Source: Candidatus Syntropharchaeum caldarium
Lineage (GTDB): Archaea; Halobacteriota; Syntropharchaeia; Syntropharchaeales; Syntropharchaeaceae
Reading direction: 5' to 3'
NCBI GenBank assembly: GCA_001766815.1
Contig: LYOS01000004.1
Span: 103,610-135,609 of the forward strand
DNA: 32,000 nucleotides
Shown here: positions 4,290-30,182 of the stretch, one piece after another
How positions within the stretch are numbered: position 1 is the first letter of the stretch
Layout of the letters: every line of letters starts with the position of its first letter
Translations under genes and position numbers: made by a program
The notes under the pieces: model-generated
The model's database searches: none
Told to the model about the DNA's origin: nothing
Seen by the model: only the letters and a program-made list of their open reading frames with translations

Positions 4290-4305
4290 TTTTGTTTTAC
4301 CTCAC

Positions 4306-5466: not shown

Positions 5467-5476
5467 ATATTTATCA

Positions 5477-13177: not shown

Positions 13178-13194
13178 GGGTGATCAGAGATTAA

Positions 13195-13204
13195 CTTTAT
13201 ATAG
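13195..13204 (+). promoter_or_regulatory. Candidate TATA box (CTTTATATAG) for the 13233-24063 operon
   Basis: Centred about 33 nt upstream of ATG 13233, in the 55-bp gap between divergent genes. Pattern only. Confidence 0.35.
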
Positions 13205-13232
13205 TTCACGGAAAAGAGAGGATGTGATATAA

Positions 13233-14099
13233 ATGAGTTCTGACGGGATAAGTATAATAGGTTCTGGTTGGGTTGGTGTAGCGATTGGAAAGGGTTTTTC
13301 TAGGCTTGGATTTAATGTAATATTCTATGATGTGGTTGAGAAGGATCTGCCGAACTTCACCACAGATATTGAGTATGCGGTTGAGAACTCGGAGATCTCT
13401 TTTATCGCCGTCCCGACACCCTCAACCCCGGAGGGGATCGATCTGAGCTATATAAAAAACGCTGTTGAAAATATCGGGAAGATGCTTAAAAACAAAGATA
13501 AGTTCCACCTTGTGGTCGTGAAGAGCACGGTTGTTCCTACAACGACGGAGAAAGTGGTGATACCTATCCTTGAAGAGCGGTCCGGGCAGAGAGTGGGAGT
13601 GGGTTTTGGGGTTTGTATGAATCCTGAGTTTCTAACAGAGATTGCGTCAACGTGGAGTGAGGAAGAAAGTGCTAAGAGGGATTTTTTCAGTGAGGATCGG
13701 ATCGTCATTGGTGAATACGATAGGAGGTCAGGAGATATCCTGGAGGAGATCTATAAACCGCTGAATAAACCGATTTTTAGAACAGATCTGAAGACCGCGG
13801 AGATAATAAAGTATGCCTCCAACTGTATGCTTGCAACGAAGATCTCCTACTGGAATGAGATCTTCATGATCTGCAAAGAACTTGGCATCGACTCACAGAT
13901 CGTTGCAGAGATCGTTGCCCTTGATCCCCGGATTGGGAAGTACGGAACGGTTCATGGCAAAGCGTTCGGTGGCAAATGCCTTCCCAAGGACCTGAAGGCT
14001 TTCATCTCTTTTGCTGATAAGTATCATAAGGTGAAGCTTCTTAAAGCGGTGGATGAGATAAACGAGGAGATAGGAGATAGGTTTGGGGTGAGGGAGTGA
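13233..14099 (+). CDS. UDP-glucose/GDP-mannose dehydrogenase family protein, short form lacking the C-terminal UDP-binding domain
   Basis: 288 aa. IIGSGWVGVAIG (NAD Rossmann), AVPTPS, NPEFL, TAEIIKYASNCMLATKISYWNE, catalytic-Cys motif FGGKCLPKD. The ORF ends right after the central domain (AVDEINEE...). Its stop overlaps the GTG start of galU (GTGA). Confidence 0.8.
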   Translation: MSSDGISIIGSGWVGVAIGKGFSRLGFNVIFYDVVEKDLPNFTTDIEYAVENSEISFIAVPTPSTPEGIDLSYIKNAVENIGKMLKNKDKFHLVVVKSTVVPTTTEKVVIPILEERSGQRVGVGFGVCMNPEFLTEIASTWSEEESAKRDFFSEDRIVIGEYDRRSGDILEEIYKPLNKPIFRTDLKTAEIIKYASNCMLATKISYWNEIFMICKELGIDSQIVAEIVALDPRIGKYGTVHGKAFGGKCLPKDLKAFISFADKYHKVKLLKAVDEINEEIGDRFGVRE

Positions 14100-14971
14100 T
14101 AAGGAAAGCGGTGATACCCGCAGCAGGGCTTGGGACTAGGTTTTTACCATTTGCGAAGAACGCTCCGAAGGAGATGCTGCCGCTTGTCGATAAGCCTGCG
14201 ATCCAGTATGTGGTTGAAGAGGCGGTTGGGTCAGGGATTGATGATATCGTGATTGTCACAGGGAGGGGTAAGCGTGCGATCGAGGATCACTTCGATAAGG
14301 CTTTTGAGCTCGAATGGACGCTCCGAGAGAAGAATAATATTAAGGCGCTTGAAGAGATCGAGCGAATCTCACAGCTCGCAGATATATACTACATCCGTCA
14401 GAAGGAGCCGCTTGGACTTGGGCATGCGATACTCTGTGCAAGAAAGCACATCGGAGATGAGCCTTTTGCGGTGCTTCTTGGGGACGATATTGTATTCTCA
14501 AAGATCCCTTGTACAAAACAGCTCATCGAGCAGTATGAAAAGGTTCATAGCTCCATAATCGCAGTGGAACATGTCCCGCCAGAGCGAATCGAGAGCTACG
14601 GTGTTGTGAAGTTCAGAGAGACCCCGTATGATCACCTCCACCCGATAGAGGATCTCGTTGAGAAACCAATGAGGGAGAGAGCACCATCTGATCTTGGAAT
14701 TCTTGGAAGATACATCCTCACACCAGGAATATTTGAGTGCATCGAGAGAACACCCCCAGGCATCAAGAACGAGATTCAACTCACCGATGCACTGAAAATT
14801 CTCAGAGAGATGGAGGACCTTTATGCGTATGAGTTCCATGGGAGACGGTACGATCTCGGGAACAAACTTGACTGGCTCAAGACGAACTTCGATGTTGCAC
14901 TGATGCGGGAGGAGTTCAGGGACGAACTCATCGTATATATTAAGGATCGGATGAAGGAGCTTGGAGTATGA
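14096..14971 (+). CDS. galU: UTP--glucose-1-phosphate uridylyltransferase
   Basis: 291 aa. [48 protein letters not shown] are classic GalU motifs. Confidence 0.9.
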
Positions 14972-15897
14972 TGGTGATCGTTGCAGGGGGCGCAGGGTTC
15001 ATCGGATCCCACCTCTGTGAGTATCTCTTGGAGAGGGGATATGAGGTTATCTGTCTCGATAATTTTATAACAGGGAGAGAGAAGAATATCAGAGGTTTGC
15101 TCGATGATGAAAACTTCAAGTTCATCGAGATGGATATCACAGAACCTCTGCCCGAGATCGATGCTGACTGGATATTCAACCTCGCATCCCCTGCATCTCC
15201 CCCGGATTACATGGCTCATCCGATCACAACGATGCGAACAGGATCCTTTGGCACATACAATTTACTTGAGCTTGCAAGAAAGAGAGACGCAAGCATCCTC
15301 TTTGCATCAACATCAGAGGTCTATGGCGACCCACAGGTGCATCCGCAGAGAGAGGATTACTGGGGGAATGTGAATCCTGTTGGACCAAGAAGTGTCTATG
15401 ACGAGGCAAAGAGATTCTCAGAAGCTCTCACAATGGCATACAAGAGATACTATGGTCTTGATACACGGATAGCAAGAATATTCAACACTTATGGTCCGAG
15501 GATGCGAGAGAACGATGGAAGAGCAATCCCGAACTTCATCGCGCAGGCACTCAGAGGAGAACCACTGACAGTCTATGGAGATGGCTCCCAGACCCGCAGC
15601 TTCTGCCACATCTCTGACATGATCAGGGGACTGTACCTCCTTATGGAATCCAGATACAGTGAACCGGTGAACATCGGAAACCCGAACGAACTGAGCATCC
15701 TCGAGCTTGCAAAGCTAATAATAGACCTCACGGGTTCAGACTCTCGGATCGAGTTTGAGCCTCTGCCAGTCGATGACCCGAAGGTGAGGATGCCAGAGAT
15801 CACAAGGATAAAGGAAGCAGTTGGCTGGGAGCCGAGTGTTGGACTGAGAGATGGATTAAAAGATACGATTGAGTACTTCAGGAGGGTTATAGGATGA
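14968..15897 (+). CDS. uxs: UDP-glucuronate decarboxylase (UDP-xylose synthase)
   Basis: 309 aa. Near-colinear match by eye to UXS: [107 protein letters not shown]. Confidence 0.9.
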
Positions 15898-17006
15898 AGA
15901 TACTTGTAACAGGTGGTGCAGGATTTATCGGATCGCACCTCGTGGATGCACTGGTCGAAGAGGGGCATGAAGTCGTTGTACTCGACTCTCTTGACCCGCA
16001 GGTACACCAGGATGAGCCAGATTACATGAATAGCAGGGCAACCTACCACTTTGGGAGAGTCGGAGACCTGACGATTCTCGAAAGAGTGCTCGAGGGCGTT
16101 GAGGTAATATTCCACGAGGCTGCTGCAGTCGGCGTTGGACAGAGCATGTACGAGATTGCGCGCTACGTGGAGGCAAACACCTTCGAGACCGCGAGGATGC
16201 TTGACCAGATCGTGAACCATGAGAACCAGGTTAAAAGAATCGTGGTCGCATCATCGATGAGCATCTATGGAGAAGGCGCTTATGAGTGTGAGGACTGCGG
16301 CGTCGTCTATCCCGAGTTGAGATCAGATGAACAGATGAAGAGACGGATCTGGGAGATGCAGTGCCCAGAGTGTGGTAAGACCACAAAACCGCTTCCAACA
16401 GACGAAGAGAAGCCACTCAAGCCGAGATCGATCTATGCAATCACAAAAAGAGATCAAGAGGAGATGTGCCTCTCAGTTGGGCAAGCATACGGGATTCCAA
16501 CCACTGCACTTCGCTACTTCAATGTCTATGGACCAAGACAATCCCTGAGCAATCCCTACACAGGCGTCTGTGCAATATTCTCATCCCGAATAAAAAACAA
16601 CAATCCTCCCCTAATCTTTGAAGATGGACTCCAGACAAGGGATTTCATAAGTGTGCACGATATCATCAAGGCAAACATACTTGCGATGAAAAAGAGAAGT
16701 GGAGACTATGAGACCTTCAACGTGGGAACCGGGAATGCAATCTCGATCCTTGAAGTGGCAGAGAAACTCACAGAGCTTTATAGCAGTGACGTCAAGCCTG
16801 AAATTGTAAATAAGTTCAGAGCAGGAGATATAAGGCACTGTTTCGCCGACACAAGAAAGATAGAACAGAAACTCGGGTTCAAACCAGAGCATTCGTTTGA
16901 AGAAGGAATGAGAGAACTTGTTGCATGGGGAGAAAAGGTAGAAGCAGAGGACGAGTTTGAACAGGCTTATGAAGAACTCAAGGTGAAGGGGCTGGTTGAA
17001 GAATGA
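15894..17006 (+). CDS. Extended-SDR NAD-dependent sugar epimerase/dehydratase with an inserted CxxC...CxxC (zinc-ribbon-like) segment
   Basis: 370 aa. [24 protein letters not shown] (YxxxK), [10 protein letters not shown]. Between the Ser and Tyr catalytic positions lies [34 protein letters not shown] (Cys132, 135, 157, 160). Confidence 0.8.
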
Positions 17007-17051
17007 AGATATGCTAGAAATGAAAATTCCTAGTGCAAGAAGATAGATAGC

Positions 17052-17759
17052 ATGTATAAAGATAAAAAAGTCTCAGTTGTAATGCCAGCATATAACGAGG
17101 AAGAAAATATACACACAGCTGTGAAAGAGTTTGGATCTATACAGGAAGTTGATGAAGTGATAGTTATCAATAATAATTCAACCGATGCGACTGGGGAGCT
17201 AGCGGCAAAAGTCGGTGCTATTGTTGTTAATGAGCCAAGACAGGGTTATGGGTATGCCTGTCAGCGAGCACTTGGAGAGGCGAGTGGTGACCTGATAATA
17301 TTGGTTGAACCTGATGGAACTTTTAGTGCACACGATGTCGAGAAATTCTTGGCATATAGTAATGACTTTGATTTTGTGATAGGAACAAGAACATCTAAGG
17401 AGATGATATATGAAGGCGCAAATATGGGTAAATTTTTAAAATGGGGTAATTGGGCACTTGCCAAACTGATTGAGGTTCTTTTCAATGGTCCTTCATTGAC
17501 AGATGTTGGCTGCACCTATCGGTTAATAAAAAAAAGCGCTTTAGGAAAGATAAAAGATAAATTTTCGGTGGGAGGGTCGCATTTTTCACCAGAAATGATG
17601 ATATTAGCCATCAAATCAGGTATCTCCATGATTGAAATCCCAGTAAGCTACAGAACAAGAAAAGGGTCGTCTAAAATTACGGGGAAAAAGTTGCCAGCGT
17701 TCAAATTAGGCTTGGTGATGATAAAAACAATCCTGAGATATAAAATTGCGGGACGATGA
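17052..17759 (+). CDS. GT2 polyprenyl-phosphate sugar synthase-like glycosyltransferase (DPM1/ArnC/GtrB type, soluble form)
   Basis: 235 aa. VSVVMPAYNEEENI, VIVINNNSTDAT, DLIILVEPDGTF (DxD-like), then GTR...YRL. No C-terminal TM helices. Confidence 0.8.
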   Translation: MYKDKKVSVVMPAYNEEENIHTAVKEFGSIQEVDEVIVINNNSTDATGELAAKVGAIVVNEPRQGYGYACQRALGEASGDLIILVEPDGTFSAHDVEKFLAYSNDFDFVIGTRTSKEMIYEGANMGKFLKWGNWALAKLIEVLFNGPSLTDVGCTYRLIKKSALGKIKDKFSVGGSHFSPEMMILAIKSGISMIEIPVSYRTRKGSSKITGKKLPAFKLGLVMIKTILRYKIAGR

Positions 17760-17773
17760 GGAAGGTGGGTTGA

Positions 17774-18142
17774 ATGCAAGCAATGTTAGCAATTCTGGTT
17801 TGTGTGGTCATCAATTCTATCGCTCAAATCTTTTTGAAGGTTGGTATCAGTGATCTGGGCAAAAAATTCTCTTTAAGCTCAACCCTTCTCACATCGCTTA
17901 TCACGAATACGTATGTCGTTTTTGGTGCTGTCCTCTATGGAATAAGTTTTATTCTGTGGTTGTATGTACTATCAAAGGTTAAGGTGAGCTATGCATATCC
18001 TTTCATAAGTTTGAGCTATGCACTGGTGGCAGTTCTGGGCTTCTTTTTGCTCGATGAGAAGATATCATTCGATGCATGGATGGGTATTTGCTTGGTGGTT
18101 GTAGGTGTGGTATTGATCGGCATGAACATTGGTGGTACGTGA
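17774..18142 (+). CDS. Small 4-TM EamA/SMR-like membrane protein (ArnE/ArnF-type putative polyprenyl-P-sugar flippase)
   Basis: 122 aa with four hydrophobic helices. VSYAYPFISLSYALVAVLGFFLLDEKIS...GICLVVVGVVLIG resembles ArnE/ArnF and half-size DMT proteins. It is sandwiched between the GT2 and GT-C genes. GGTGGGT SD-like element upstream. Confidence 0.65.
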   Translation: MQAMLAILVCVVINSIAQIFLKVGISDLGKKFSLSSTLLTSLITNTYVVFGAVLYGISFILWLYVLSKVKVSYAYPFISLSYALVAVLGFFLLDEKISFDAWMGICLVVVGVVLIGMNIGGT

Positions 18143-18146
18143 TGCA

Positions 18147-19796
18147 ATGAGATTTGATTTTCTAAAGAACAAAAACTTCTTGATTATTTTATTTATTATT
18201 TTTTATTTTGTGTTGGTTATTCCACAGATCACGGGGCTATTTGTAAGTGATGAGGTTGATTTCATCAATGCAGCACGTGGAGTTGTGACCAGTGGCATAC
18301 CAATCTACGAAGGAGCAGGTAACGTCATGAAAATAGGACTGTGGCATCCCACGCTTTACGTGAATATATTGGCGACGTCTTTTAAGCTCTTTGGCGTTCA
18401 TGAATGGAGTGCAAGAATAATTTCGGTTATTTTTACTTTGCTTACCCTTTTGGTGGTTTATCTAATCATGAAGTACCTTGCTTTTTTGGATTTCTCAAAA
18501 GTGTTAGCAATTTCGATTTTCTTGTTCAATCCCCTAGTCGTTCAAGGCTCACTTCTCGTAGATATAGACAATAGTGTCCTGATGTTTTTCATCGCACTCT
18601 TCGTTTATGCATACCTAAAACTGGATAGAGAGAAGCCAAAAAATTTGCTGTTGCTCGGTATTTTGTTTGCAATAGCTCTCTGGGCGAAAATCCCAACTCC
18701 GCCTGTGCTTATTTTAAGTATCCTTATTTTTCACACATTAAACCGGGAGTATAAAAAAGGATTGCAGGAAACCATCGTGATTGGACTTGTCGGAGGCACA
18801 GTATTCCTCACTACATGGATTTTATATTGCGACTTTTTTGATTTGCCATTTTTGCAGCCCTTTATACATAATATTGGGTATATAGGTGTTGGCACAAATA
18901 AAATGCATTTCTTACTGACACATCTGTGGGGATTTAAGAATATATTATTTTGGGCGACTCCATTCTTTATTCTTCCGATATTAATTATTTCTATAAATAG
19001 GGCGAAAATTTATCTTAAAAATAGAAAATTAGAAGCAATAGATTTTCTTGTTATTGTGGGTCTATTAATTTTCCTTGAGTATCTCATCGTCGGCTCTTAT
19101 CAGACGGCGGACTTTCCAAGGTATTTTTCGCCAATGATGCCCATGTTCTCCGTGGTTTTTGCTGGCTATTTTGGGATGGTTAAAGAGTTAACAAGAAAGG
19201 ACTTGCATGTAGTCTCTTTCGTCTCATTGATTATAATTGCCTATTTAATTTTAGTGTTAAAAGACCCTTTATTGATTGACAGAGTTATTTTTAACACAGG
19301 TGCTATATACAAAATAGTGGAAGAAACGGCTGTGGTGACTGTGCTGTATCTCCTTCCATTTATCATTTCGTATACGATTTTTAGAGCATTAAAAGTAAAA
19401 ACTGCTTTTATGCTTTCGATTATAGTGCCTCTACTTATGTGCGGCGTTTATATAGATGCTATACAGGTTAAAGCGGATTATGCCACCGCCTATTTCTACG
19501 GAGAAAGCGGTATGAAAGATACGATTGATTATTTAAGTCCTCGTATTGATGATAATGATGCTGTGATAGCAAAGAAAGATGTAGCATATTATTTGGCAGT
19601 AAAAGAGCTCTACGAACTGCCAAAGAGTGCGGAAGAACTTGAAAAACTGATCGAGAACAGAGACATCGAATACATTATACTAAAGAAAGAAGGTTATTTT
19701 ACATCATTGAGATATAAGGATGTGACTGAGCTGATAGACACAAAATATGAACTTGATAAGGAGTTTGGAGACTATAAAGTGTACAAGATAGGATAG
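18147..19796 (+). CDS. GT-C fold polytopic glycosyltransferase (ArnT / PMT, GT39/GT83-like)
   Basis: About 549 aa from ATG 18147 (the ORF-track TTG at 18129 is an alternative). More than 10 predicted TM helices. First loop has VSDEVDFINAARG (DE motif), then WHPTLY and HEWSARIISVIFTLLTLLVVYLIMK, typical of the ArnT/PMT family. Soluble C-terminal domain of about 90 aa. Confidence 0.75.
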   Translation: MRFDFLKNKNFLIILFIIFYFVLVIPQITGLFVSDEVDFINAARGVVTSGIPIYEGAGNVMKIGLWHPTLYVNILATSFKLFGVHEWSARIISVIFTLLTLLVVYLIMKYLAFLDFSKVLAISIFLFNPLVVQGSLLVDIDNSVLMFFIALFVYAYLKLDREKPKNLLLLGILFAIALWAKIPTPPVLILSILIFHTLNREYKKGLQETIVIGLVGGTVFLTTWILYCDFFDLPFLQPFIHNIGYIGVGTNKMHFLLTHLWGFKNILFWATPFFILPILIISINRAKIYLKNRKLEAIDFLVIVGLLIFLEYLIVGSYQTADFPRYFSPMMPMFSVVFAGYFGMVKELTRKDLHVVSFVSLIIIAYLILVLKDPLLIDRVIFNTGAIYKIVEETAVVTVLYLLPFIISYTIFRALKVKTAFMLSIIVPLLMCGVYIDAIQVKADYATAYFYGESGMKDTIDYLSPRIDDNDAVIAKKDVAYYLAVKELYELPKSAEELEKLIENRDIEYIILKKEGYFTSLRYKDVTELIDTKYELDKEFGDYKVYKIG

Positions 19797-19815
19797 TATT
19801 GGAGGTTGTCGAAGA

Positions 19816-20847
19816 ATGAAGATCCTTGTAACAGGCGGTGCTGGCTTTGTTGGTTCGCATCTCTGCGAGCACTTTGCAGGAGAGGGCTTCGAAGTGATTG
19901 CACTTGACAATCTCAAGCGCGGCGAAGTTCTCGGGAAGAAGATCAACTCAAGGTACAATGTAGACTTTTTAAAAAGCCTTGAGGGTGTTGAATTTGTGGA
20001 AGGAGATATAACCAGGTTTTCAACCCTGAAGGAAGCATCGAAGAATGCTGATGTGATCATCCATACAGCGGCGCAGGTGGCTGTGACAGCATCACTTGAA
20101 GACCCGCGAAGGGACTTCGAGATAAATGCCCTTGGCACGTTCAACGTACTTGAGGCTGCAAGGCTAAACGATTGTGCAGTTCTCTACTGCTCAACAAACA
20201 AGGTCTACGGGGATAATGTGAACCATATTCCGATAAGGGAGCTTGATGCGAGGTACGAGTTCGCAGATGATACGTTCAAAGACGGGATACCTGAGACGTT
20301 CCAGATAGACCATTGCGAGCACACCCCCTACGGGTCCTCGAAGCTTGCAGGCGATATCTACGTGCAGGACTATGCCCATCTCTACGGTCTAAAGACAGGC
20401 GTATTCAGGATGAGCTGCATCTATGGCACCCGCCAGTTCGGGGTTGAGGATCAGGGCTGGGTCGCATGGTTCACGATCGCAGCACTCACCGGAAAGCCGA
20501 TCACGATCTATGGTGATGGAAAACAGGTCAGAGACGTACTCTATGTAACAGACCTTGTGGCTGCATTTGATGCATTCTTGAAGAGCGGACTTGCAGGAGA
20601 GGTCTTCAATATCGGCGGGGGTCCTGAAAATACCCTCTCTCTCCTTGAGTTGATAGAGATCCTTGAAAGGCTCGCTGGTAAAGAGATAACACCCAGGTAC
20701 GATGACTGGAGACCCTCAGATCAGAAGGTGTACGTCTCTCACATAGGCAAGGCGAGAAAGCTTCTTGGATGGCGTCCGAGAGTATCGCCAGAAGAGGGTG
20801 TTGAAGAGGTCGTTTCGTGGGTGATGAAAAACAGAGATATTCTTTAA
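19816..20847 (+). CDS. Extended-SDR NDP-sugar epimerase, CDP-paratose 2-epimerase (tyvelose epimerase)-like
   Basis: 343 aa. GGAGFVGSHL, STNKVYGD, TPYGSSKLAGDIYVQDYAHLYGLKTGVFRMSCIYGTRQFGVEDQGWVAWF, GDGKQVRDVLYVTDL. This block pattern matches Salmonella RfbE-type epimerase as I recall it. GGAGGT SD 9 nt upstream. Confidence 0.75.
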   Translation: MKILVTGGAGFVGSHLCEHFAGEGFEVIALDNLKRGEVLGKKINSRYNVDFLKSLEGVEFVEGDITRFSTLKEASKNADVIIHTAAQVAVTASLEDPRRDFEINALGTFNVLEAARLNDCAVLYCSTNKVYGDNVNHIPIRELDARYEFADDTFKDGIPETFQIDHCEHTPYGSSKLAGDIYVQDYAHLYGLKTGVFRMSCIYGTRQFGVEDQGWVAWFTIAALTGKPITIYGDGKQVRDVLYVTDLVAAFDAFLKSGLAGEVFNIGGGPENTLSLLELIEILERLAGKEITPRYDDWRPSDQKVYVSHIGKARKLLGWRPRVSPEEGVEEVVSWVMKNRDIL

Positions 20848-20852
20848 TTCGG

Positions 20853-22583
20853 ATGAAAATATCGCTGGTAATCCCACTTCAGAACGAGGAAGAGAACCTC
20901 CCAGAGCTCATAAACAGACTTGTACCTACACTGAGATCCAGTGTAAAGACTGAAGACTACGAGCTTCTTCTGGTTAATGATAACAGCACTGATGGAACTG
21001 CAACTCTGATCGATAGATACGCAGCTGAAGATCCAAAGATCCGTGCGGTGCACAGACGTATTGCGCCAGGCTTCGGGAACGCTATAAAAGAGGGCTTCAG
21101 AGATGCAACCGGAGATATTATAATCCCCTTCATGGGCGATCTCTCGGATGATCCAGAGGATATCGTAAAGCTTGTGCAAAAGATTGAGGAGGGGTATGAT
21201 CTGGTGTATGGTTCAAGATTCATCAAGGATGGTTCTGCATCCGACTACTCTCTATTGAAGCTCATCGCGAACCGGGCATTCAACAATCTGGTGCGTCTGC
21301 TCTACGGTATGCAGGAGAGGGACGTTACAAATGCGTTCAAGGCTTACAGAAAAGAGGTGCTCGAAAGAATCGGAGAACTTGAGGCAGAAGGCTTCGATTT
21401 AACCGTGGAAATTCCATTAAAGGCTCATATTCGCGGTTTTAAGGCTGGAGAGGTTCCAGTGCACTGGCATGGCAGGACGAGGGGTGAAGCCAAGTTAAAA
21501 TTATCGCAGAATGGATCCTTGTATGGCAAGCGTCTCCTCAAGCTCTTTATATGGGGTAACACCATCGCCCTGAAAGACCTCTTCCAGCAGACGATCAAGG
21601 GATCTCCCATCCATATAATTATAGCTCTTTTTATCGGTCTACTGATACTTGCAGGCATCCTCTTTTTAAGTGGATTGTCCGGGGTGTATTTGAGCATAAA
21701 GAACGCAAATCTGTACTTCTTTCTCGCCTCTTGCCTCGCAGTCTTCATGGCATTTCCACTGCGAACATGGCGCTGGAGCATACTGCTCCGAACCTCTGGT
21801 CACACGCTGCCGAGAAATATAATCTTCAATGCACTGCTCTTCGGGTGGTTTATGAACTATCTGCTCCCTGCAAGAGTGGGAGATATCACACGGGGCGTGG
21901 CACTCAAAACCACCGCCAACGTGCCACTCGGAGTTGCCCTGATGACAATCATAATCGAACGAATCCTCGATATGATCATGCTTGGCTTGCTCCTCACCCC
22001 TGCTCTGCTTTTCCTTGCACCGAAGAGGTTTCTATCTATTGGAGGCGGGGTTAGCGTGATAATCTTCCTGCTGATCTTCTCTCTCTTCCTCGTCTATAGA
22101 TTCGATTATCTGATAACAAAAAAGCTCAAAAATAGATTTGCAGGCGTACACGACTCCATCAGAGAACTGAAAGAAGGTTTGTATGCAATCACTAAAAACC
22201 CGGCTGCAATGGGACTGTGCCTTATTCTATCACTCCCGATATGGATCTTTGAGATCACAAGCATCTACCTCGCTGCAAAGGCGGTACACGTCAACATCCC
22301 ATTCTTCTCCGCAATTGCAGCAGGAGTTACAACATTCATCCTGCAGGCACTCCCACTCACCCCTGCGGGAATTGGAATACACGAAGGATCAATAGCAGGC
22401 GTGCTCGCACTATTCGAGATTCCCCTCAAGGCTGGAACCTCGTTAGCACTCCTTGACCACCTTGCAAGAGCAGTGATAGTCTACCTCTTCGGGGCAATAG
22501 CTACAGTACACATCGGATTCCAATCAAGAAGATACTTTAATAGGTTTAATCGGCAAAGGAGTGAAGACGATGGAGCGCCGTGA
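20853..22583 (+). CDS. Fusion protein: GT2 polyprenyl-phosphate sugar synthase domain + UPF0104 / MprF-TM (flippase-like) membrane domain
   Basis: About 576 aa from ATG 20853 (the ORF-track GTG at 20817 overlaps the preceding gene). N-terminal ISLVIPLQNEEENL, LLLVNDNSTDGT, MGDLSDDPED, YGSRF are DPM1-like. The C-terminal ~300 aa form about 8 TM helices with FPLRTWRWSILLR and LPARVGDITRG, typical of the LPG-synthase-TM/UPF0104 family. Confidence 0.8.
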   Translation: MKISLVIPLQNEEENLPELINRLVPTLRSSVKTEDYELLLVNDNSTDGTATLIDRYAAEDPKIRAVHRRIAPGFGNAIKEGFRDATGDIIIPFMGDLSDDPEDIVKLVQKIEEGYDLVYGSRFIKDGSASDYSLLKLIANRAFNNLVRLLYGMQERDVTNAFKAYRKEVLERIGELEAEGFDLTVEIPLKAHIRGFKAGEVPVHWHGRTRGEAKLKLSQNGSLYGKRLLKLFIWGNTIALKDLFQQTIKGSPIHIIIALFIGLLILAGILFLSGLSGVYLSIKNANLYFFLASCLAVFMAFPLRTWRWSILLRTSGHTLPRNIIFNALLFGWFMNYLLPARVGDITRGVALKTTANVPLGVALMTIIIERILDMIMLGLLLTPALLFLAPKRFLSIGGGVSVIIFLLIFSLFLVYRFDYLITKKLKNRFAGVHDSIRELKEGLYAITKNPAAMGLCLILSLPIWIFEITSIYLAAKAVHVNIPFFSAIAAGVTTFILQALPLTPAGIGIHEGSIAGVLALFEIPLKAGTSLALLDHLARAVIVYLFGAIATVHIGFQSRRYFNRFNRQRSEDDGAP

Positions 22584-24063
22584 TACAGCGATACTCTTCG
22601 GGGCAGGTATCCTTTTCGTCATAGTAAGACTCTACATCGCAACCCTCTCATCCTATCCATTCTTTCAGGGATGGAACGAGGGGCACTACTCACTCATAGC
22701 GATGGGATACTTTGACCACTCACTCCTTCTCCCTGAACGAGGAGGCAGTATAAACTGGGCGGTTCCACCTTTTTACTCATGGCTCGTCTTTGCATCTTTC
22801 AAACTATTTGGTATCTCAGAGATGAGCGCAAGGCTGACCTCTATTCTTGGAACGATTCTCGCCATCCCCTTCATCTATCTACTGGCAAAAGAGCTTTATG
22901 AGAGGAATGTGGCAATTCTCTCGTCACTGATATTTTTGTTCATCCCATGGGTGGTGCATCTTTCAGGAAGGGTTCAGACAGATATGGTGATGACCGCGCT
23001 CATGACTGCTTCGATTGCGTGCTTTGTTTATGCTTTTAATCATAAAAGAAGTTTCCTTCCTTTTGGTATATTATTTGGATTGGCCCTCTTCACGAAACAG
23101 CCTTCGATTTTGATACTGGCAATCGTTGCAGTCTGGCTGATTCTTGCAGTTAAAAGAGATGAGAGAGTATTAATCATGAAAAAATCTATTTTTCCAATTT
23201 TAATAGGCTTAATTCCAGTTTTAGCTTATGTACTGTATCATTTACTGAACGGTAATGCCAACGGCGTTTTACAACTTGTCTATGGTGAGGGGGTGCACAG
23301 GACGGTGCCATTCTCAAACCTGAAGAATACTTTAGCTGGCATTCTCGCTGGAATTTCTCCCTTAGTCTTGATATTTTCTCTCTACGAAATTTACAAATCG
23401 AAGAATCTCAAGAATATCTTAGTCTTGTGGCTATTAGTTTATGGAATTTTTGTTCTCGCAAGAACGCCACCAAGCCACGAGTACTACATACTTCCACTGG
23501 CGGTACCATCTGCGATTTTAGCATCAAAAGGCATCTTCAGCTTTAGAGATGCACTTGCATCAGAAGAAAAGTCTCGGAAAAGGTTAGGGATCTTAGTAGC
23601 GATAATGGTCATACTCTCTACCATTCCAGTCTCGTACATTTTCTTATCCTATACTGGTGATCTGGGTTATACATGCACCAAAGATGTTATCTCTTATTTG
23701 AGCACTGAGAAAGAAGAGGAGATTGTTCTCCTTAACCCGGGCAGGTATAGCCCACAACTCAGGTGGTATTCAGAGTTGAGTGGTTCAAATATAGCGGTGG
23801 CTGGGCACCTCCCAAACGACCTTTCTTCCGTATCATTAGCAGATCTAAGGAATCTCTCAGGTGGCATAGATGCTTCAAAAATATATCTGGTGATAGATGG
23901 GCGAGGAGGACTCGAGGAGGAGTTAGAGGACGCTGGATATGAACGTGTTTATGCTTGTTATTACCTGACAAAGCTCCCAAGCATATTCTCCAATATTTAC
24001 ACCGGTGAGGAGAGCAAGCGTAAATACTTTGAGCAGCATTTATCAATCTATGAATTGAAGTGA
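22561..24063 (+). CDS. GT-C fold polytopic glycosyltransferase (ArnT / PMT, GT39/GT83-like), second copy
   Basis: 500 aa from GTG 22561 (ATG at 22570 is an alternative). It overlaps the preceding gene. GWNEGHYSLIAMGYF in the first loop, ISEMSARLTSILGTILAIPFIYLLAKELY, FTKQPS. Multiple TM helices plus a soluble C-terminal domain. Confidence 0.75.
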   Translation: MKTMERRDTAILFGAGILFVIVRLYIATLSSYPFFQGWNEGHYSLIAMGYFDHSLLLPERGGSINWAVPPFYSWLVFASFKLFGISEMSARLTSILGTILAIPFIYLLAKELYERNVAILSSLIFLFIPWVVHLSGRVQTDMVMTALMTASIACFVYAFNHKRSFLPFGILFGLALFTKQPSILILAIVAVWLILAVKRDERVLIMKKSIFPILIGLIPVLAYVLYHLLNGNANGVLQLVYGEGVHRTVPFSNLKNTLAGILAGISPLVLIFSLYEIYKSKNLKNILVLWLLVYGIFVLARTPPSHEYYILPLAVPSAILASKGIFSFRDALASEEKSRKRLGILVAIMVILSTIPVSYIFLSYTGDLGYTCTKDVISYLSTEKEEEIVLLNPGRYSPQLRWYSELSGSNIAVAGHLPNDLSSVSLADLRNLSGGIDASKIYLVIDGRGGLEEELEDAGYERVYACYYLTKLPSIFSNIYTGEESKRKYFEQHLSIYELK

Positions 24064-24163
24064 AAAGATAGAGCAGATTGATGAAAAGAGCGCCATAGAT
24101 CTCTGTATGGTTACACCGGAAATAGAAGAATGAGCGGAAGGTTTTGAAAAGTAAAACAATTGA

Positions 24164-24172
24164 TTTTATATA
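24164..24172 (+). promoter_or_regulatory. Candidate TATA box (TTTTATATA) for the flippase gene
   Basis: Centred about 27 nt upstream of GTG 24196, consistent with a leaderless transcript. Pattern only. Confidence 0.35.
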
Positions 24173-24195
24173 AGCAAAAAAGAAAGTGATAATTT

Positions 24196-25728
24196 GTGGT
24201 GCACTTAGCAAGAAAAGTCTTGAAGAACTCGATTTACAATAGTTCGAGTGTATTCATAAGTAAGTTCGGCGGATTAATCTTCACCATCATCTTGGCAAGA
24301 CTGCTCCTTCCAGAGCTCTTCGGTGTCTACCACCTTGCCTTGGCAGTCGGTTTGATGCTCTTGACTTTCACCGACCTTGGAATAAACGGAACTTTAATTA
24401 GATATGTTTCTCATGCGGTTGGAAAGAATGACGAGGATCTGGCATCAAGTTATTTCAGGTATCTATTCAAACTGAAATTTATACTCGTTTTTTTATCCTC
24501 TTTATCACTTATATTATTAGCAAATCCTCTGGCTTTACATCTTTTTCACAAACCTGACCTATCTCTACCTCTGCAGATTGTCGGGATATTTCTGTTCTTT
24601 CAATCTTTCTTGGATTTCGTGGAAGCTGGATTTATCTCCATGCAGAGATTTGCATACTCAACGATCAGACATATTGTTTACGAGGGTTTAAGGCTCATTT
24701 TGGTCCCTGCACTCATTCTTCTTGGTTTTTCGGTTTTTGGTGCGTTGGCAGGGCTTAGTATATCAACTGCTGCTACACTTCTCGTGTTGACTTATTTTTT
24801 ACTGAAGAATTATCCTTTTCTATTGAAAGGAAAGACTGTGAAGATAGAGAGAAGAAGAATACTGAAATTTTTGAGTTATATGACGATAGGGTCTATCTCC
24901 GGTGTGTTCTTTGCCTATGTAGATAGCATCATGCTTGGAATTTTCATGCCCGTAGAATATGTTGGCTTTTACAGAGCAGGTTATAACATCGTATTTGCGT
25001 TTGCGGGATTGGTCTCTATTGCAGGAGTGTTGTTTCCAGTCTTCACGCAGTTGGAAGGAGATGAATTGGAGAACGCATTCAAGAAGGTATTTAAGTATTC
25101 TTCGATACTATCTTTTCCATCTGCGTTTGGATTACTCTTCATAGCAGAGCCGGTTATAAGGGTCGTGTATGGAATTGATTATTTGCCTGCCGTTTTACCA
25201 ACTTACATACTATCACTTTTGATAATAATAGCACCTTTAGATTTCTTCGGCACTTTATTTAATGCAAAGGAGAAGCCAGAGTACCCGGCAAAACTTATCA
25301 TAATCTCGTCCACATTAAATACAATTCTTAATTATTTTTTAATCTTGCAGTTTGGCATGGCTGGGGCTGCAGTTGCAACTGTAATCTCGAGGTATTTCAA
25401 TATCACCTCTCTTGGATTTTTGTCTAGAAAAGTTTTAAACGTATTTCCAAGCCTGGATACGATATACAAGCCGTTGTTTTCTTCTTCAGTGATGGTTTTA
25501 TTCTTTTATTTAGTGCCAAGACCTAATACGATACTAATCGGGTTGGGAGAAATTTTAATGGCTACAATTATTTATATTTCCGTAATGTTCTCGATGAGAG
25601 GGATTGAAAAAGAGGATATAAAATATTTGGGTGTAATTGTTGGACAGGAGGAGCGATTGATAAAAGCGTATAATTTTGCTAAGAGTGAATTGGGAAGAGG
25701 GAATAAGAGAAATAAGGAAAAGAAGTAA
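24196..25728 (+). CDS. MOP-superfamily oligosaccharide/polysaccharide flippase (Wzx / AglR-like)
   Basis: 510 aa with about 12-14 TM helices. N-terminal KNSIYNSSSVFISKFGGLIFTIILARLLLPELFGVYHLA and central RRRILKFLSYMTIGSISG follow the polysaccharide-biosynthesis-protein (Wzx) layout. Confidence 0.8.
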   Translation: MVHLARKVLKNSIYNSSSVFISKFGGLIFTIILARLLLPELFGVYHLALAVGLMLLTFTDLGINGTLIRYVSHAVGKNDEDLASSYFRYLFKLKFILVFLSSLSLILLANPLALHLFHKPDLSLPLQIVGIFLFFQSFLDFVEAGFISMQRFAYSTIRHIVYEGLRLILVPALILLGFSVFGALAGLSISTAATLLVLTYFLLKNYPFLLKGKTVKIERRRILKFLSYMTIGSISGVFFAYVDSIMLGIFMPVEYVGFYRAGYNIVFAFAGLVSIAGVLFPVFTQLEGDELENAFKKVFKYSSILSFPSAFGLLFIAEPVIRVVYGIDYLPAVLPTYILSLLIIIAPLDFFGTLFNAKEKPEYPAKLIIISSTLNTILNYFLILQFGMAGAAVATVISRYFNITSLGFLSRKVLNVFPSLDTIYKPLFSSSVMVLFFYLVPRPNTILIGLGEILMATIIYISVMFSMRGIEKEDIKYLGVIVGQEERLIKAYNFAKSELGRGNKRNKEKK

Positions 25729-25738
25729 CATTTAAGAG

Positions 25739-25754
25739 ATTTTTCGCTAAAAAT
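25739..25754. terminator. Candidate bidirectional terminator (A/T hairpin with T-runs) between convergent genes
   Basis: ATTTTT-CGCT-AAAAAT palindrome in the 45-bp gap between the flippase (+) and GT4 (-) stops. It gives a T5 run on both strands. Weak, pattern only. Confidence 0.25.
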
Positions 25755-25773
25755 TTGCCATATATCCTAAATT

Positions 25774-26886
25774 TCAGCCGTACCCGTTATACGCCTCTTC
25801 ATAAACTTTTATCGTTTCTTTTGCCGTTTTCTCCCAACTAAACATCTTCGCTCTTTTCAAACCGCTTTTAATCAAGTCCTGTCTCAAACCTTCATTTGTT
25901 AAAACTTCATACATTGCCTTTACCCATCCATCGATATTGTATGGGTCAACCATAATACCAGCATCTCCTACAACTTCCAGCATCGTTCCTATATTTCCTG
26001 TTATGACAGGACAACCACAAGCCATCGCCTCAAGTGGTGGAAGACCGAAACCCTCACACCTGCCAGACGGAAAAACGAATAAATCCGCGAGGTTATAAAG
26101 TTTTACCAATTCATCATCAGAAACATACCCAAGCAGCAAAACGTCTTTTTGCAGACCCATTTTTTTTATTAAATCCTCTCTGTCTTTTCTGGTAGATCTA
26201 TCCATACCACCAAAAACCAATAACTTATGTTTTATCCCTCTCTTTTTGAGTTTATAAAATGCATTGATTAAATTTGGATGAATGCTATTATCATGCAAAA
26301 TAAAAGGATAATTGATATAATCTATTTTTGTATCATTTAAAATTTTAAATCTCTCATCAGGTGCCAAATATATCACCCTAATTTTATCTTCTGGAACCTT
26401 TAGATATTCTATTGCATCACGTTTGGTATTCTCAGAGACCGCAATTATCCTATCTATTTTATTTACAATCATTTTTAGGGTTAGTCTCCAGATTCTATGA
26501 TATATTTTCGTTGCTGCTGGACTTAATAGACATAAATCATGGATTGTTAAAACTTTTTTGTGTTTATTATTAAAAAATAAAATACCTATGTTATTAGATG
26601 GATTTGGCGCAGTGACGTGAACTAAATCAATACCTTCCCTTTTTAAGTGTAAGGGCAATTTAGTCATGTTTGTATGAGCCTTGCGTGGAGGGATGGGCAA
26701 CAGCGGAAGTATTACTTCATTTGTTTTAAGATACAGTGGGTCTGGATTGTTCATATAATGGATCGCATAAATGTCAATATCATAATCATTATTTATCTTC
26801 AAAAGACCTTTGACAAGGCTTCTCGTATAGTTGCCTATACCCGTTCTTCGCTTATCCATGTACTCGGTTGTGATTCCTACTTTCAT
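25774..26886 (-). CDS. Glycosyltransferase family 4
   Basis: About 370 aa from ATG 26886 ([21 protein letters not shown]). The ORF-track start at 26979 would run across the divergent gmd promoter and start. C-terminal [30 protein letters not shown] (E-x7-E). Confidence 0.8.
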
Positions 26887-26953
26887 AAATACATCAAACA
26901 AAATATTTATATGCAAGGTATTTATAGGTATAGTGTTATTGAGGGTAGTAGAT

Positions 26954-27355
26954 ATGAAAAAAACATTGGTCACCGGCATAACAGGACAGGACGGCTCTTA
27001 CTTGGCTGAGCTATTACTGAGCAAAGGATACGAAGTCCACGGTATTATCAGAAGGTCGTCCACCTTTAATACAAGTAGAATAGACCATATCTATGTTGAT
27101 CCGCACGATCCGAACGCAAGATTATTCCTGCATTACGGCGACCTTTCGGATTCTGAGCAGATTTCAAATATAATTTACAACATAGAACCTGACGAAGTAT
27201 ATCATCTGGGCGCGCAGAGTCATGTGCGGGTAAGTTTTGATAGTCCCGAATATACCGGGAATGTCACTGCACTGGGCACAACCAGAATATTAGAGGCAAT
27301 AAGAAGAAGTAAAAATAGCATAAAATTCTATCAGGCATCGAGCAGCAATTTATGA
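26954..27355 (+). pseudogene. gmd: GDP-mannose 4,6-dehydratase, N-terminal ~133 codons only (truncated)
   Basis: [47 protein letters not shown]...[36 protein letters not shown]...KFYQASSS, then NL-stop where Gmd continues ELYG. Full-length Gmd is about 340-370 aa. The stop is formed by the ATGA of the next gene. Confidence 0.8.
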
Positions 27356-27897
27356 ATACAATTAATAAAATAGAGATCGGATGTGGCAAAACCAAACATC
27401 ATGGGTATATTGGAATAGATAGAATTAAAGTAGAAGGCGTAGACATTATTGCTGATATGAATAATCTTCCTTTTAAATCCGAATCGATTGACGAAGTATT
27501 GGCAGTTCAGGTTTTAGAGCATTCGCCCGACCTATTGAAAACAATGTCCGAAATTTATAGAGTATTAAAGGTTGGAGGTAAACTGATAGGTGAAGTATGT
27601 CACGGGCGAAGTGTAGCGTTTTATTCTGATTTTACTCACCATCAACCATTTAATATTCATACAATGACTTATTTCACTGAAAAAAAAGAGTTTAGCTATT
27701 ACTCATCAGTAAGATTTAACATTATACGTAATAGATTTATAATAACATCTCCATTTAAATTTATTTTACTTGATGCATGTGCAAAGTTCTTAGAGTGGTT
27801 TTGTAATAAGCTGGGGGGATATGCAGAATATTGTTTAGGGATGATACCTTTTGATATAGATATCTCATTTGAAATGCAAAAGGTGAGTAATAAATGA
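27352..27897 (+). CDS. Class I SAM-dependent methyltransferase
   Basis: 181 aa. [17 protein letters not shown] (motif I), [33 protein letters not shown] resemble Methyltransf_11-like motifs. Confidence 0.8.
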
Positions 27898-28943
27898 ATA
27901 TAGTTTTTGTTGCTAAGCGCATGTACCCCCCACATATTGGGGGGATCGAACTCTATGTATTTGAGCTAGCAGAAGCACTTAGACAAGAGGGCTTTGCTTG
28001 TTCAGTAATTTCCGAAGCTGAAAAATCTGCGATGGATAGAAAAATTATTAATGCCGATGTAGTTCATTTTTGTGGGTTAGATGGACAGTTTTCAGTATAT
28101 TACTTAAAAATATCCAAGAAATATAATAAAGCTACGGTTATAACCCCATTCTATCACCCGATTGGGCTAACTGTTCGTTCCAGTTCTGCAAGAGTAAAAC
28201 CCCTATTGTATTTAAGGCTTTGGTTAAATAAAAAGAAAATATCTACATATCTTATAAAAAATTGTGACAAAATAATAGCTGCATCCTCTTTTGACCAGAA
28301 ACAACTTTACAAAGATTTTAATGTAAAAAGTGTGGTCATACCTTATGGTATAAATTTATCCAAAATACATATAAAAAAAGTAGTTGATAAAACTAAATTA
28401 GATAAAAATATAAACTTATCATTTGTTGGTGAAATTAGCAGCAAAGGAAATGGCTTATCATGTATTGTAAAAGCATTAAATATACTAAAATCTAGGGGGT
28501 GTTATTGCAAGTTGGTTGCAGCTGGGAGAGATGTTGGTGAAACTAACAAAATAATGAAACTTGCAGAAAAACTAAATGTTGGAGATCAAATACAGATTCT
28601 TGGTATGGTTCCAAATGAGAGAGCTTTAGAAATAATGGCTAATTCAGATATTTTCATAATGCCAAGTTATTATGAAACTTTTAGTAAAGTTGTTATTGAA
28701 GCTATGGCAGTTGGTGTTCCTGTAATAGCTTCGGATGTTGGAGCACATAAGGAACTCATAAGAAATCCAAAGCTCAGAGTTGCTTATGGAGATGCAGGCG
28801 GGCTGGCTGATGCAATTGACAATCTGGTTTCAGATAATGAACTATACAACGAGACCATAGTATATGAAAAGGAGTTTGTAAAGCAATTCGACTGGAGGGG
28901 TGTATCTAAAAGGATTATAGAACTATATAAGAGGCTATGTTGA
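27894..28943 (+). CDS. Glycosyltransferase family 4
   Basis: 349 aa. HIGGIELYVFELAEAL at the N-terminus; FVGEISSKGNG, IFIMPSYYETFSKVVIEAMAVGVPVIASDVG (E-x7-E). ATGA overlap with the methyltransferase gene. Confidence 0.8.
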   Translation: MNIVFVAKRMYPPHIGGIELYVFELAEALRQEGFACSVISEAEKSAMDRKIINADVVHFCGLDGQFSVYYLKISKKYNKATVITPFYHPIGLTVRSSSARVKPLLYLRLWLNKKKISTYLIKNCDKIIAASSFDQKQLYKDFNVKSVVIPYGINLSKIHIKKVVDKTKLDKNINLSFVGEISSKGNGLSCIVKALNILKSRGCYCKLVAAGRDVGETNKIMKLAEKLNVGDQIQILGMVPNERALEIMANSDIFIMPSYYETFSKVVIEAMAVGVPVIASDVGAHKELIRNPKLRVAYGDAGGLADAIDNLVSDNELYNETIVYEKEFVKQFDWRGVSKRIIELYKRLC

Positions 28944-29060
28944 GTCGCATGTGTGAAAAAATCAGCTTAAATAAGGATGAAAATCAGGATTTGAAAATAC
29001 TTCAAACGAAATCAGAAATTGAAAAAGATTTATGAGGAAGCTGTAAGAAAGTAGTTAAAC

Positions 29061-30176: not shown

Positions 30177-30182
30177 TAGCTA

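Follow-up and report, generated by a model that had tools for sequence, protein, structure and literature searches.

A predicted AglD-type surface-glycan operon with an inserted Arn-like cassette in Candidatus Syntropharchaeum caldarium

In Haloferax volcanii, AglD loads mannose onto dolichol phosphate (Dol-P), the Wzx-like protein AglR is involved in the crossing of the membrane, and AglS transfers the sugar outside (PMC3871713). Makarova et al. (2015) described a UPF0104 domain (arCOG00899) at the C terminus of AglD that shares homology with MprF's flippase domain, found AglD in a conserved neighborhood with the PMT/STT3-like enzyme arCOG00563, and predicted flippase activity for the whole UPF0104 family (PMC5898192); the C-terminal domain of AglD has been a published flippase candidate since then. 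A GT-A domain placed N-terminal to PplT is a common euryarchaeal architecture according to the PplT preprint, and COG0392 at present bears the label "predicted membrane flippase AglD2/YbhN." A 2026 paper on the dolichol-phosphate mannose synthase (DPMS) of Pyrococcus furiosus proposed that this enzyme may flip its own product, the same make-and-flip idea (PMC12992685). Here, we analyze a 32,000-nucleotide stretch of Candidatus Syntropharchaeum caldarium (contig LYOS01000004.1, GenBank assembly GCA_001766815.1; the whole stretch is called the window below), in which two sets of glycosyltransferase and candidate flippase genes lie in tandem behind a series of nucleotide-sugar genes. Module 1 comprises a GT2 glycosyltransferase (GT2_1), a small protein with four transmembrane (TM) segments, and a GT-C glycosyltransferase (GTC1); module 2 comprises a GT2-UPF0104 fusion and a second GT-C enzyme (GTC2).

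Classified by its gene families, the locus is an AglD-type operon plus a cassette resembling the Arn system, and all of its parts belong to known families. We put at roughly 70% the probability that this is an operon for attaching single sugars, donated by a Dol-P lipid carrier, to the cell surface and that module 1 is an inserted cassette. To our knowledge, the way in which Dol-P-mannose and Dol-P-glucose cross the membrane is settled in no domain of life.

Operon layout and the inserted cassette

An open reading frame (ORF) survey of the window found eleven tightly packed genes on the + strand between 13233 and 25728. These genes, the insert, its flanking repeats, and the genes that follow are listed here with the basis of each assignment in brackets (SDR, short-chain dehydrogenase/reductase).

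13233 to 14099, + strand: UGD', short UDP-glucose/GDP-mannose dehydrogenase-like protein, 288 aa, first gene of the conserved operon
14096 to 14971, + strand: GalU, UTP-glucose-1-phosphate uridylyltransferase (NCBIfam TIGR01099)
14968 to 15897, + strand: UXS, predicted UDP-glucuronate decarboxylase (UDP-xylose synthase) (human UXS1 structures)
15894 to 17006, + strand: SDR2, GalE-like nucleotide-sugar 4-epimerase, last gene 5' of the insert (PDB 4zrm)
16998 to 17010, + strand: left 13-bp direct repeat GAAGAATGAAGAT, across the SDR2 stop codon (exact repeat search)
17008 to 19807, + strand: inserted cassette, module 1, 2,800 bp (GC content and comparison with relatives)
17052 to 17759, + strand: GT2_1, DPMS/ArnC/AglJ-like polyprenyl-phosphate glycosyltransferase, 235 aa (Pfam PF00535)
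17774 to 18142, + strand: 4-TM ArnE/ArnF-like (EamA/SMR-type) candidate flippase, 122 aa (EamA, NCBIfam)
18147 to 19796, + strand: GTC1, PMT_2-type GT-C glycosyltransferase (Pfam PMT_2, PMT)
19811 to 19823, + strand: right 13-bp direct repeat GAAGAATGAAGAT, across the SDR3 start codon (exact repeat search)
19816 to 20847, + strand: SDR3, nucleotide-sugar epimerase resembling CDP-tyvelose 2-epimerases, belonging to the ancestral operon (PDB 9rl0, 1orr)
20853 to 22583, + strand: AglD-family fusion of GT2 and a C-terminal UPF0104/MprF-TM (PplT) domain (Pfam, NCBIfam, structure model)
22561 to 24063, + strand: GTC2, PMT_2/ArnT-like GT-C glycosyltransferase (Pfam PMT_2)
24196 to 25728, + strand: Wzx/MOP-family flippase of the AglR-like class (Polysacc_synt, 1.2e-38)
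25774 to 31244: four GT4 genes, 3' of the Wzx gene (Pfam)

A first-pass annotation of this DNA had placed six genes, from GT2_1 to GTC2, at the coordinates given above, and all six ORFs are present on the + strand. The tight packing with overlaps that it described is likewise seen: the intergenic gaps across the six-gene stretch are 14, 4, 19, and 5 bp, with 45 bp 5' of 17052, and the fusion and GTC2 overlap at 22561 to 22583 by 14 to 23 bp according to the start codon chosen. Starts are ambiguous only at TTG 18129/ATG 18147, GTG 20817/ATG 20853, and GTG 22561/ATG 22570. A second assembly (a Logan SRR3669912 contig, L001) has an identical gene arrangement and may share the culture or sample. 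The Pfam scans took in 30 ORFs of the window, with a few of about 115 aa left out.

Close relatives, namely, L169 (GCA_029932115.1), L170 (ENA ERZ1742239), and L167/L168, have the order UGD'-GalU-UXS-SDR2-SDR3-fusion-(methyltransferase)-GT-C-Wzx and do not have module 1; L169 is a short contig, with GalU as its first gene and with a last gene that is cut by the contig end and has no Pfam call. In L167, L168, L169, and L170, the SDR2 stop overlaps the SDR3 start. Positions 13189 to 17007 and 19808 to 26943 of the window match L169/L170 at 96 to 98% nucleotide identity (97.5 to 98.5% for L169 and 96.3 to 96.4% for L170), and positions 17008 to 19807 are absent there, such that homology stops at 17007 and resumes at 19808. 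The GC content of this segment is 0.375, versus 0.471 in the flanking operon, with a sharp drop near 17000 (about 0.48 to 0.39) and a sharp rise near 19800 (0.35 to 0.50), and the perfect 13-bp direct repeat GAAGAATGAAGAT stands on both sides of it. The cassette is 70 to 93% identical in nucleotides to the metagenome contig L084, whereas the adjacent SDR2 gene is 58 to 74% identical to SDR2 of L084, so that the two segments have different histories. In the donor-type contigs L084 to L087, the cassette lies after UXS-SDR2 and before Wzx. As judged from these alignments, module 1 is a cassette inserted exactly at the SDR2/SDR3 stop-start junction, at the strain level, and it brought no tailoring gene along. 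In the scanned ORFs flanking the insert, Pfam gave no transposase or integrase domain, and no tRNA gene was found in the window. The composition pattern was also considered with module 2 as the insert, as L084 to L086 have module 1 followed directly by Wzx; this was ruled out by L169/L170, where module 1 is missing and SDR2 and SDR3 are contiguous.

These comparisons bear on the earlier proposal of a separate sugar-nucleotide tailoring enzyme for each module, which had to be given up: SDR3 follows SDR2 in the relatives, and the cassette brought no such enzyme with it. Because SDR2 and SDR3 are contiguous in relatives of 96 to 98% identity that have no module 1, SDR3 is not private to module 2 but, by its conserved position, part of a predicted UGD'-GalU-UXS-SDR2-SDR3 pathway.

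It is improbable, in our assessment, that module 1 is a recent passenger without a separate role, either redundant with module 2 (same sugar and acceptor) or decaying. Its absence from relatives of 96 to 98% DNA identity, its lack of nucleotide-sugar genes, and the rearrangement scars nearby (the breakpoints at 13189 and 26943 and the truncated DUF362 and GMD-like genes) would fit such a passenger. Yet its three ORFs are intact, with their motifs kept and 80 to 86% protein identity to intact orthologues, and the insertion leaves the stop of SDR2 untouched and restores the start of SDR3. The identity of GTC1 to GTC2 is only about 21%, and their loop 1 motifs differ, which suggests different acceptors or linkages, and a second lineage (L089) also has both modules in one locus.

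The outer borders of the operon were also compared. Homology between the window and L170 (96% in nucleotides) ends at 13189 and 26943. At the left border lies a DUF362/ferredoxin gene (12392 to 13177, − strand) without its N-terminal part, and at the right border lies an N-terminal fragment of a GDP-mannose dehydratase (GMD)-like gene (26954 to 27355, + strand) that covers profile positions 1 to 131 of 332. These borders give the glycan locus the look of a hot spot of recombination, and the surface-glycan loci of these uncultured archaea are strain-variable mosaics, like O-antigen loci. A 181-aa methyltransferase was at first read as a fragment; this reading was dropped, as its S-adenosylmethionine motif lies near the N terminus and it is a different gene from that of L170, so that it is not clearly a fragment.

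Families of the two modules and their conservation

The fusion has an identical protein entry in GenBank, OFV67486.1. Its N-terminal GT2 domain (PF00535, 6.9e-29) has DPMS as a PDB match (5mlz, 3.6e-28), along with ArnC and GtrB, and aligns with P. furiosus DPMS and ArnC over the catalytic domain, with RGEAKLK where DPMS has RGESKLK. The C-terminal LPG_synthase_TM/UPF0104 domain (PF03706, 3.5e-49, 168 bits against a cut-off of 33.4) spans residues 272 to 559 of the 588-aa ORF read from the GTG start (20817 to 22583), or about 260 to 547 from ATG 20853. TIGR00374 of NCBIfam scores 110 bits against a cut-off of 43.2, and the protein has seven hydrophobic segments. In an AlphaFold2 model (mean pLDDT, 72), the TM domain reaches 80 to 93. 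Foldseek matched the N-terminal part of the model with DPMS, ArnC, and GtrB and the C-terminal part with MprF (9goe, 7duw, and 9j8s; 336 to 368 columns; E values of 2.5e-3 to 5.9e-3), and thus both PF03706 and the predicted fold bear out the earlier assignment of a UPF0104/MprF-TM domain. The aminoacyl-phosphatidylglycerol synthase domain DUF2156 was not found in the fusion by Pfam; the protein is therefore not an MprF and has only the TM domain in common with it.

At an E value of ≤1e-10, 462 homologues of the fusion were found, and the best 120 of the 462 all have the same full-length two-domain architecture; hosts among the matches listed include Methanoperedens, Methanophagales, Methanocellales, Methanolobus, and Archaeoglobus. 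P0028, named "Glycosyltransferase AglD [uncultured archaeon]," is 55% identical to the fusion at 100% coverage; colinearity with proteins named AglD was judged on this one and not on Haloferax AglD. On these grounds, we assign the GT2-UPF0104 fusion to the known AglD family; it is no new solution. The make-and-flip fusion proposed in the first-pass annotation is thus upheld in its domains, but it restates the published AglD prediction and may not be self-contained, because use of the AglD product in H. volcanii involves the Wzx-like AglR. The same annotation cited AglD/AglR/AglS as a three-component system but overlooked that module 2 together with Wzx (24196 to 25728) has the same content.

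GTC2 matches PMT_2 (9.8e-20, 71.8 bits against a cut-off of 26.1), has nine hydrophobic segments, and weakly matches an ArnT structure (5ezm, 5.7e-5); none of the GTC2 homologues found bears the name AglS. The order fusion-GTC2-Wzx is also present in L089 (68% identity), L167, and L170.

In module 1, GT2_1 has a PF00535 domain (2.3e-21) and no predicted TM helix. Its NCBIfam matches to AglJ (1.3e-29) and to a Dol-P hexose transferase (1.8e-26) both lie under the cut-off, and in the PDB it matches P. furiosus DPMS (5mlz, 6.9e-9) and also ArnC; both GT2 domains of the locus are thus nearest to polyprenyl-phosphate sugar-loading enzymes (DPMS 5mlz, ArnC, and GtrB). The 4-TM protein has four hydrophobic segments and an EamA match (Pfam, 8e-11), and its size and topology fit ArnE/ArnF (about 110 to 130 aa, four TM segments, EamA/SMR-like); its scores are under the NCBIfam equivalog cut-offs for both ArnF (3.5e-16, 59.7 bits versus 99) and ArnE (5.9e-12, 45.8 versus 92). 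The cassette has a single 4-TM gene and not an ArnE/ArnF-like pair, as do L083 to L086 by Pfam, and this gene lies between or beside an ArnC-like GT2 and an ArnT-like GT-C gene in the window, L083 to L093, L105, and L107. GTC1 matches PMT_2 (9e-14, 52.4 bits against 26.1) and PMT (3.2e-9) and has 11 hydrophobic segments; its family is small (15 homologues found), and a sequence search of the PDB gave no match. The GTC1 first external loop carries a DE motif (FVSDEVDF). In alignments, the GTC1 group keeps D-E (FV[SA]DE) and the GTC2 group has an invariant WNEGxY (N-E) in loop 1; common to both are FK.FG..SAR and a later conserved Asp. Pfam found no STT3 domain in GTC1 or GTC2 and matched PMT_2 in both, in keeping with the earlier ArnT/PMT-like call, which an assignment as oligosaccharyltransferases would have refuted.

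The genes upstream point to a nucleotide-sugar pathway. UGD' has PF03721 (1.3e-32) and PF00984 (3.3e-28) domains and the Rossmann motif GSGWVG; GalU scores 370.8 bits against the TIGR01099 cut-off of 326.8; and UXS matches human UXS1 structures over its full length (4gll, 7.4e-114). SDR2 (PDB match 4zrm, 1.5e-47) has an insertion at about residues 131 to 163 with two CxxC pairs (CEDCG...CPECG), zinc-ribbon-like, that splits the Pfam Epimerase match. The nearest solved relatives of SDR3 are CDP-tyvelose 2-epimerases (9rl0, 7.9e-84; 1orr, 1.6e-71). Taken together, the Pfam, NCBIfam, and PDB matches agree with the domain and family calls made earlier, that of a tyvelose-epimerase-like SDR included, and both modules have the gene content for making, possibly flipping, and transferring a lipid-linked sugar outside. 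SDR2 orthologues (56 to 70% identity) adjoin both GT2 types in many lineages, and one or two SDR3-like genes lie directly 5' of the fusion gene almost everywhere, usually after UGD-GalU-UXS. The window also has a full-length UGD gene, on the − strand at its right edge, from 31310 onwards (432 aa in L001).

Conservation was assessed in loci from a genome scan whose patterns were based on the GT2 domain; of its 80 loci, about 54 have GT2 only, almost all of them bacterial, and were kept only as a comparison set. Fusion loci were counted over the 23 loci of GTDB species in which the fusion is full length and the flanks are usable. A PMT_2 GT-C gene adjoins the fusion gene in 10 of these 23 and in all four close relatives; GTC2 orthologues adjoin it in L003, L004, L006, L011, L015, L018, L089, L167, L169, and L170, and GTC2 and fusion homologues share a contig in at least 11 cases. 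The trio of GT2_1, 4-TM, and GTC1 genes is intact in L083 to L088, L090, L091, and L107, and the GT2 and 4-TM pair is also found in L092, L093, and L105, where the contig allows. L089 has both modules, in the order fusion-GTC2-Wzx-GT2_1-methyltransferase-4-TM-GTC1. The modules are thus co-conserved in other genomes as had been expected, each alone in many loci and both in L089; gene order across these loci indicates that each is conserved separately and that their tandem order in the window is not a conserved design. The earlier picture of two systems in one operon therefore stands for the gene sets, both of which are present, but not for the layout, which is a strain-level insertion.

Several observations concern related arrays elsewhere. 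L138, L139, L141, L153, and L166 have two or three small GT2 genes among three or four GT-C-like multi-TM genes, together with methyltransferases, over about 10 kb, with SDR3-like and UGD genes after them; such multi-pair arrays (L138, L153, and others) suggest that tandem modules as such are not unusual. In the bacterial loci L029 to L081, the GT2 protein shares 36 to 47% identity with the fusion's N-terminal domain and has no UPF0104 domain, and most of these GT2 genes are flanked, 5' or 3', by one or two tyvelose-epimerase-like SDR genes. The SDR-SDR-GT2 unit is widespread (Planctomycetota, Verrucomicrobiota, Cyanobacteria, Acidobacteriota, and Omnitrophota).

Elsewhere in the window, a separate low-GC block (0.32 to 0.38; 903 to 8116, − strand) looks like another surface-polymer pathway, with two PHP-domain genes, two ATP-grasp genes, a PIG-L-type deacetylase, DUF354, a GT4, and one gene without a family. 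The PIG-L deacetylase, at 2578 to 3207, is unrelated to ArnD. The block is followed by a BacA/UppP polyprenyl-diphosphate phosphatase gene (8617 to 9411, + strand).

Proposed mechanism and its alternatives

The scheme that follows is a proposal, in which we infer Dol-P as the carrier, flipping by one or the other membrane protein, which sugar is carried, and what accepts it. In the cytoplasm, UDP-glucose would be converted to UDP-glucuronate, UDP-xylose, and then products modified by the two epimerase-like SDRs. On the inner side of the membrane, the AglD-like GT2 domain would load Dol-P with the sugar; the fused UPF0104 domain would be the likely carrier of the lipid-linked sugar outward, with the adjacent Wzx possibly helping; and GTC2 would pass the sugar to an outside acceptor, for which our leading guess is the glycan of an S-layer glycoprotein. 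In module 1, GT2_1 would load Dol-P, the 4-TM protein might flip the product as a homodimer, and GTC1 would transfer the sugar outside. GT2_1 probably uses the SDR2 product, because its orthologues follow SDR2 in the donor genomes, and the AglD-like enzyme probably that of SDR3. The upstream genes hint that the carried sugar is derived from UDP-xylose, and is possibly a pentose, in an archaeal lineage of the butane-oxidizing type. An S-layer protein gene (PF07752, 715 aa; L170:864-3011) lies directly 5' of the operon in L170, a weak hint of the acceptor; tblastn found no copy of this gene in the window.

The membrane gene beside GT2_1 varies among lineages. In a census of the neighbors of GT2_1 orthologues of at least 61% identity, a 4-TM gene was found beside the GT2_1 orthologue in 13 loci and the window, and a stand-alone PF03706 gene (2.1e-56, 1.1e-50, and 3.8e-33) replaces it directly 5' of the GT2_1 orthologue (65 to 71% identity) in L097, L098, and L100; the order in L097 is UPF0104-GT2-methyltransferase-PMT_2. 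L028 (Methanomethylicia) has SDR2, SDR3, an AglD-N-type GT2 without UPF0104, and a 4-TM gene. Such an alternation would be expected of two proteins with one function and supports, circumstantially and without proof, a predicted shared role. The alternation of 4-TM, UPF0104, or neither beside orthologous GT2 genes is what is new here, and it adds to the existing flippase prediction. We extend it, tentatively and at rather less than even odds, to the proposal that UPF0104 (fused or stand-alone) and the single ArnE/F-like 4-TM protein may be interchangeable dedicated flippases for Dol-P-monosaccharides, in which case the AglD-type fusion would be a self-sufficient synthase-flippase. If this is true, a strain with both solutions and relatives without the cassette would form a natural test bed for Dol-P-sugar flipping. 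A possible further flippase variant is seen at L082:6762-8853, where a GT2 gene is followed by DUF2304 (111 aa) and a stand-alone UPF0104 gene (327 aa), 4 kb from a GT2_1-methyltransferase-GTC1 set without a 4-TM gene.

Several observations weigh against the proposed decoration of the surface with Dol-P-linked sugars. We know of no archaeal UPF0104 protein for which flipping activity has been demonstrated, and the same holds for the present 4-TM protein. In about eight loci, the GT2_1 orthologue adjoins no 4-TM gene and no UPF0104 gene, so that a dedicated adjacent flippase is not obligatory. PMT/ArnT-type enzymes usually have Asp-Glu in the first loop, and GTC2 has N-E in place of D-E in loop 1. 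In the fusion family, a Gly stands at the first Asp of the DAD (DXD) motif of DPMS/ArnC (MGDLSDD, residues 94 to 100; 17 of 17 aligned), and the fusion model is poor at GT2 residues 114 to 228. By Pfam, UGD' is made up of an N-terminal and a central domain, and the C-terminal UDP-binding domain is absent. This 288-aa protein was first taken for a fragment, but the short form is conserved in L015 (71% identity) and in L167 and L170 (287 aa), so that it is not clearly one. Thirteen of the 23 fusion loci have no recognizable GT-C neighbor: five of them have multi-TM proteins without a Pfam family (L008, L009, L014, L020, and L022), and eight have neither. The multi-TM ORFs 3' of the fusion were not counted as GT-C; those of L008, L009, and L014 showed no profile similarity to the GT-C alignment (hhalign). 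Last, a Wzx gene lies directly 3' of GTC2 here and in relatives, and the Dol-P-mannose made by AglD of H. volcanii crosses the membrane "in a process involving AglR," a Wzx-like protein (PMC3871713).

The last point suggests another division of labor, in which the UPF0104 domain is a membrane anchor or a Dol-P-presenting domain, like the TM domain of a type III DPMS, and the adjacent AglR-like Wzx flips. The Wzx gene (24196 to 25728) keeps its place after fusion-GTC2 in L089, L167, and L170, and P. furiosus DPMS has a TM domain of its own, itself proposed to flip the product (PMC12992685), which suggests that TM domains on such enzymes can have a use without being MprF-like. We nevertheless consider this arrangement unlikely. 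Most fusion loci in other Halobacteriota have no adjoining Wzx, and the Wzx of the window could equally serve an oligosaccharide built by the four GT4 genes (25774 to 31244). The UPF0104 domain, in turn, is homologous, in its sequence and its predicted fold, to the one region of MprF for which lipid translocation has been shown, and stand-alone UPF0104 genes alternate with the ArnE/F-like gene beside orthologous GT2 genes.

The fusion loci without a GT-C neighbor, 13 of 23, would also suit an enzyme that glycosylates and flips a phospholipid or glycolipid, like MprF or GpgS/GpgF, with the GT-C enzyme not its consumer. The substrates established for the UPF0104 family are phospholipids (lysyl- and alanyl-phosphatidylglycerol for MprF), and GpgF is predicted to act on glucosaminyl-phosphatidylglycerol. 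Against this, PMT_2-class GT-C enzymes use polyprenyl-phosphate sugars, and a GT-C of this class adjoins the fusion or shares a contig with it in many lineages. The GT2 domain of the fusion is nearest to DPMS (3.6e-28), ArnC, and GtrB and not to a GT4 such as GpgS, and the activity described for AglD of Haloferax is the addition of mannose to dolichol phosphate (PMC3871713). We regard the glycolipid alternative as highly improbable and retain the transfer of single sugars from Dol-P as the preferred reading for both modules.

Comparison with described systems

Several described systems resemble the window in part. The C-terminal 300 or so residues of the fusion match MprF/PplT (UPF0104, PF03706, COG0392) by sequence and predicted fold; the partner domain in MprF is an aminoacyl-phosphatidylglycerol synthase acting on a phospholipid, whereas the partner here is a GT2 domain with Dol-P-sugar as the putative substrate. 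Among solved structures, the type III DPMS of P. furiosus (5mlz) and GtrB stand nearest to both GT2 domains of the window, but the DPMS has a four-helix TM domain unrelated to UPF0104, and GT2_1 has no TM helix. In the GpgS/GpgD/GpgF system of Pseudomonas aeruginosa, a glycosyltransferase is likewise accompanied by a UPF0104 protein predicted to flip its lipid product; unlike the window, that system uses a GT4 on phosphatidylglycerol, includes a deacetylase, and has no GT-C consumer.

The three parts of module 1, and their order, are those of ArnC/ArnE-ArnF/ArnT, which act in the modification of enterobacterial lipid A with 4-amino-4-deoxy-L-arabinose, and the decarboxylation of UDP-glucuronate, done there by ArnA, is represented upstream in the window by UXS. 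The likeness has limits: Arn has an ArnE/ArnF pair where module 1 has one 4-TM gene, all NCBIfam scores are under the equivalog cut-offs, and the host is an archaeon without lipid A. Among the 30 window ORFs scanned with Pfam (a few ORFs of about 115 aa lie outside the scan), no ArnB-like aminotransferase (DegT), ArnA formyltransferase domain, or ArnD deformylase was found.

A close counterpart of the conserved operon is the AglD/AglS/AglR set, which adds the final mannose to the S-layer N-glycan of H. volcanii: fusion, GT-C, and Wzx in the window have the same gene content and would follow the same scheme. In H. volcanii, aglD lies apart from the other agl genes (PMC3871713), whereas the counterparts in the window are adjacent, and the sugar of AglD is mannose, whereas the UXS and epimerase genes upstream in the window suggest another sugar. 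Set beside these systems, the locus adds no new kind of system; it adds a clean, dated insertion of a three-gene cassette, with near-identical relatives that are free of the insert.

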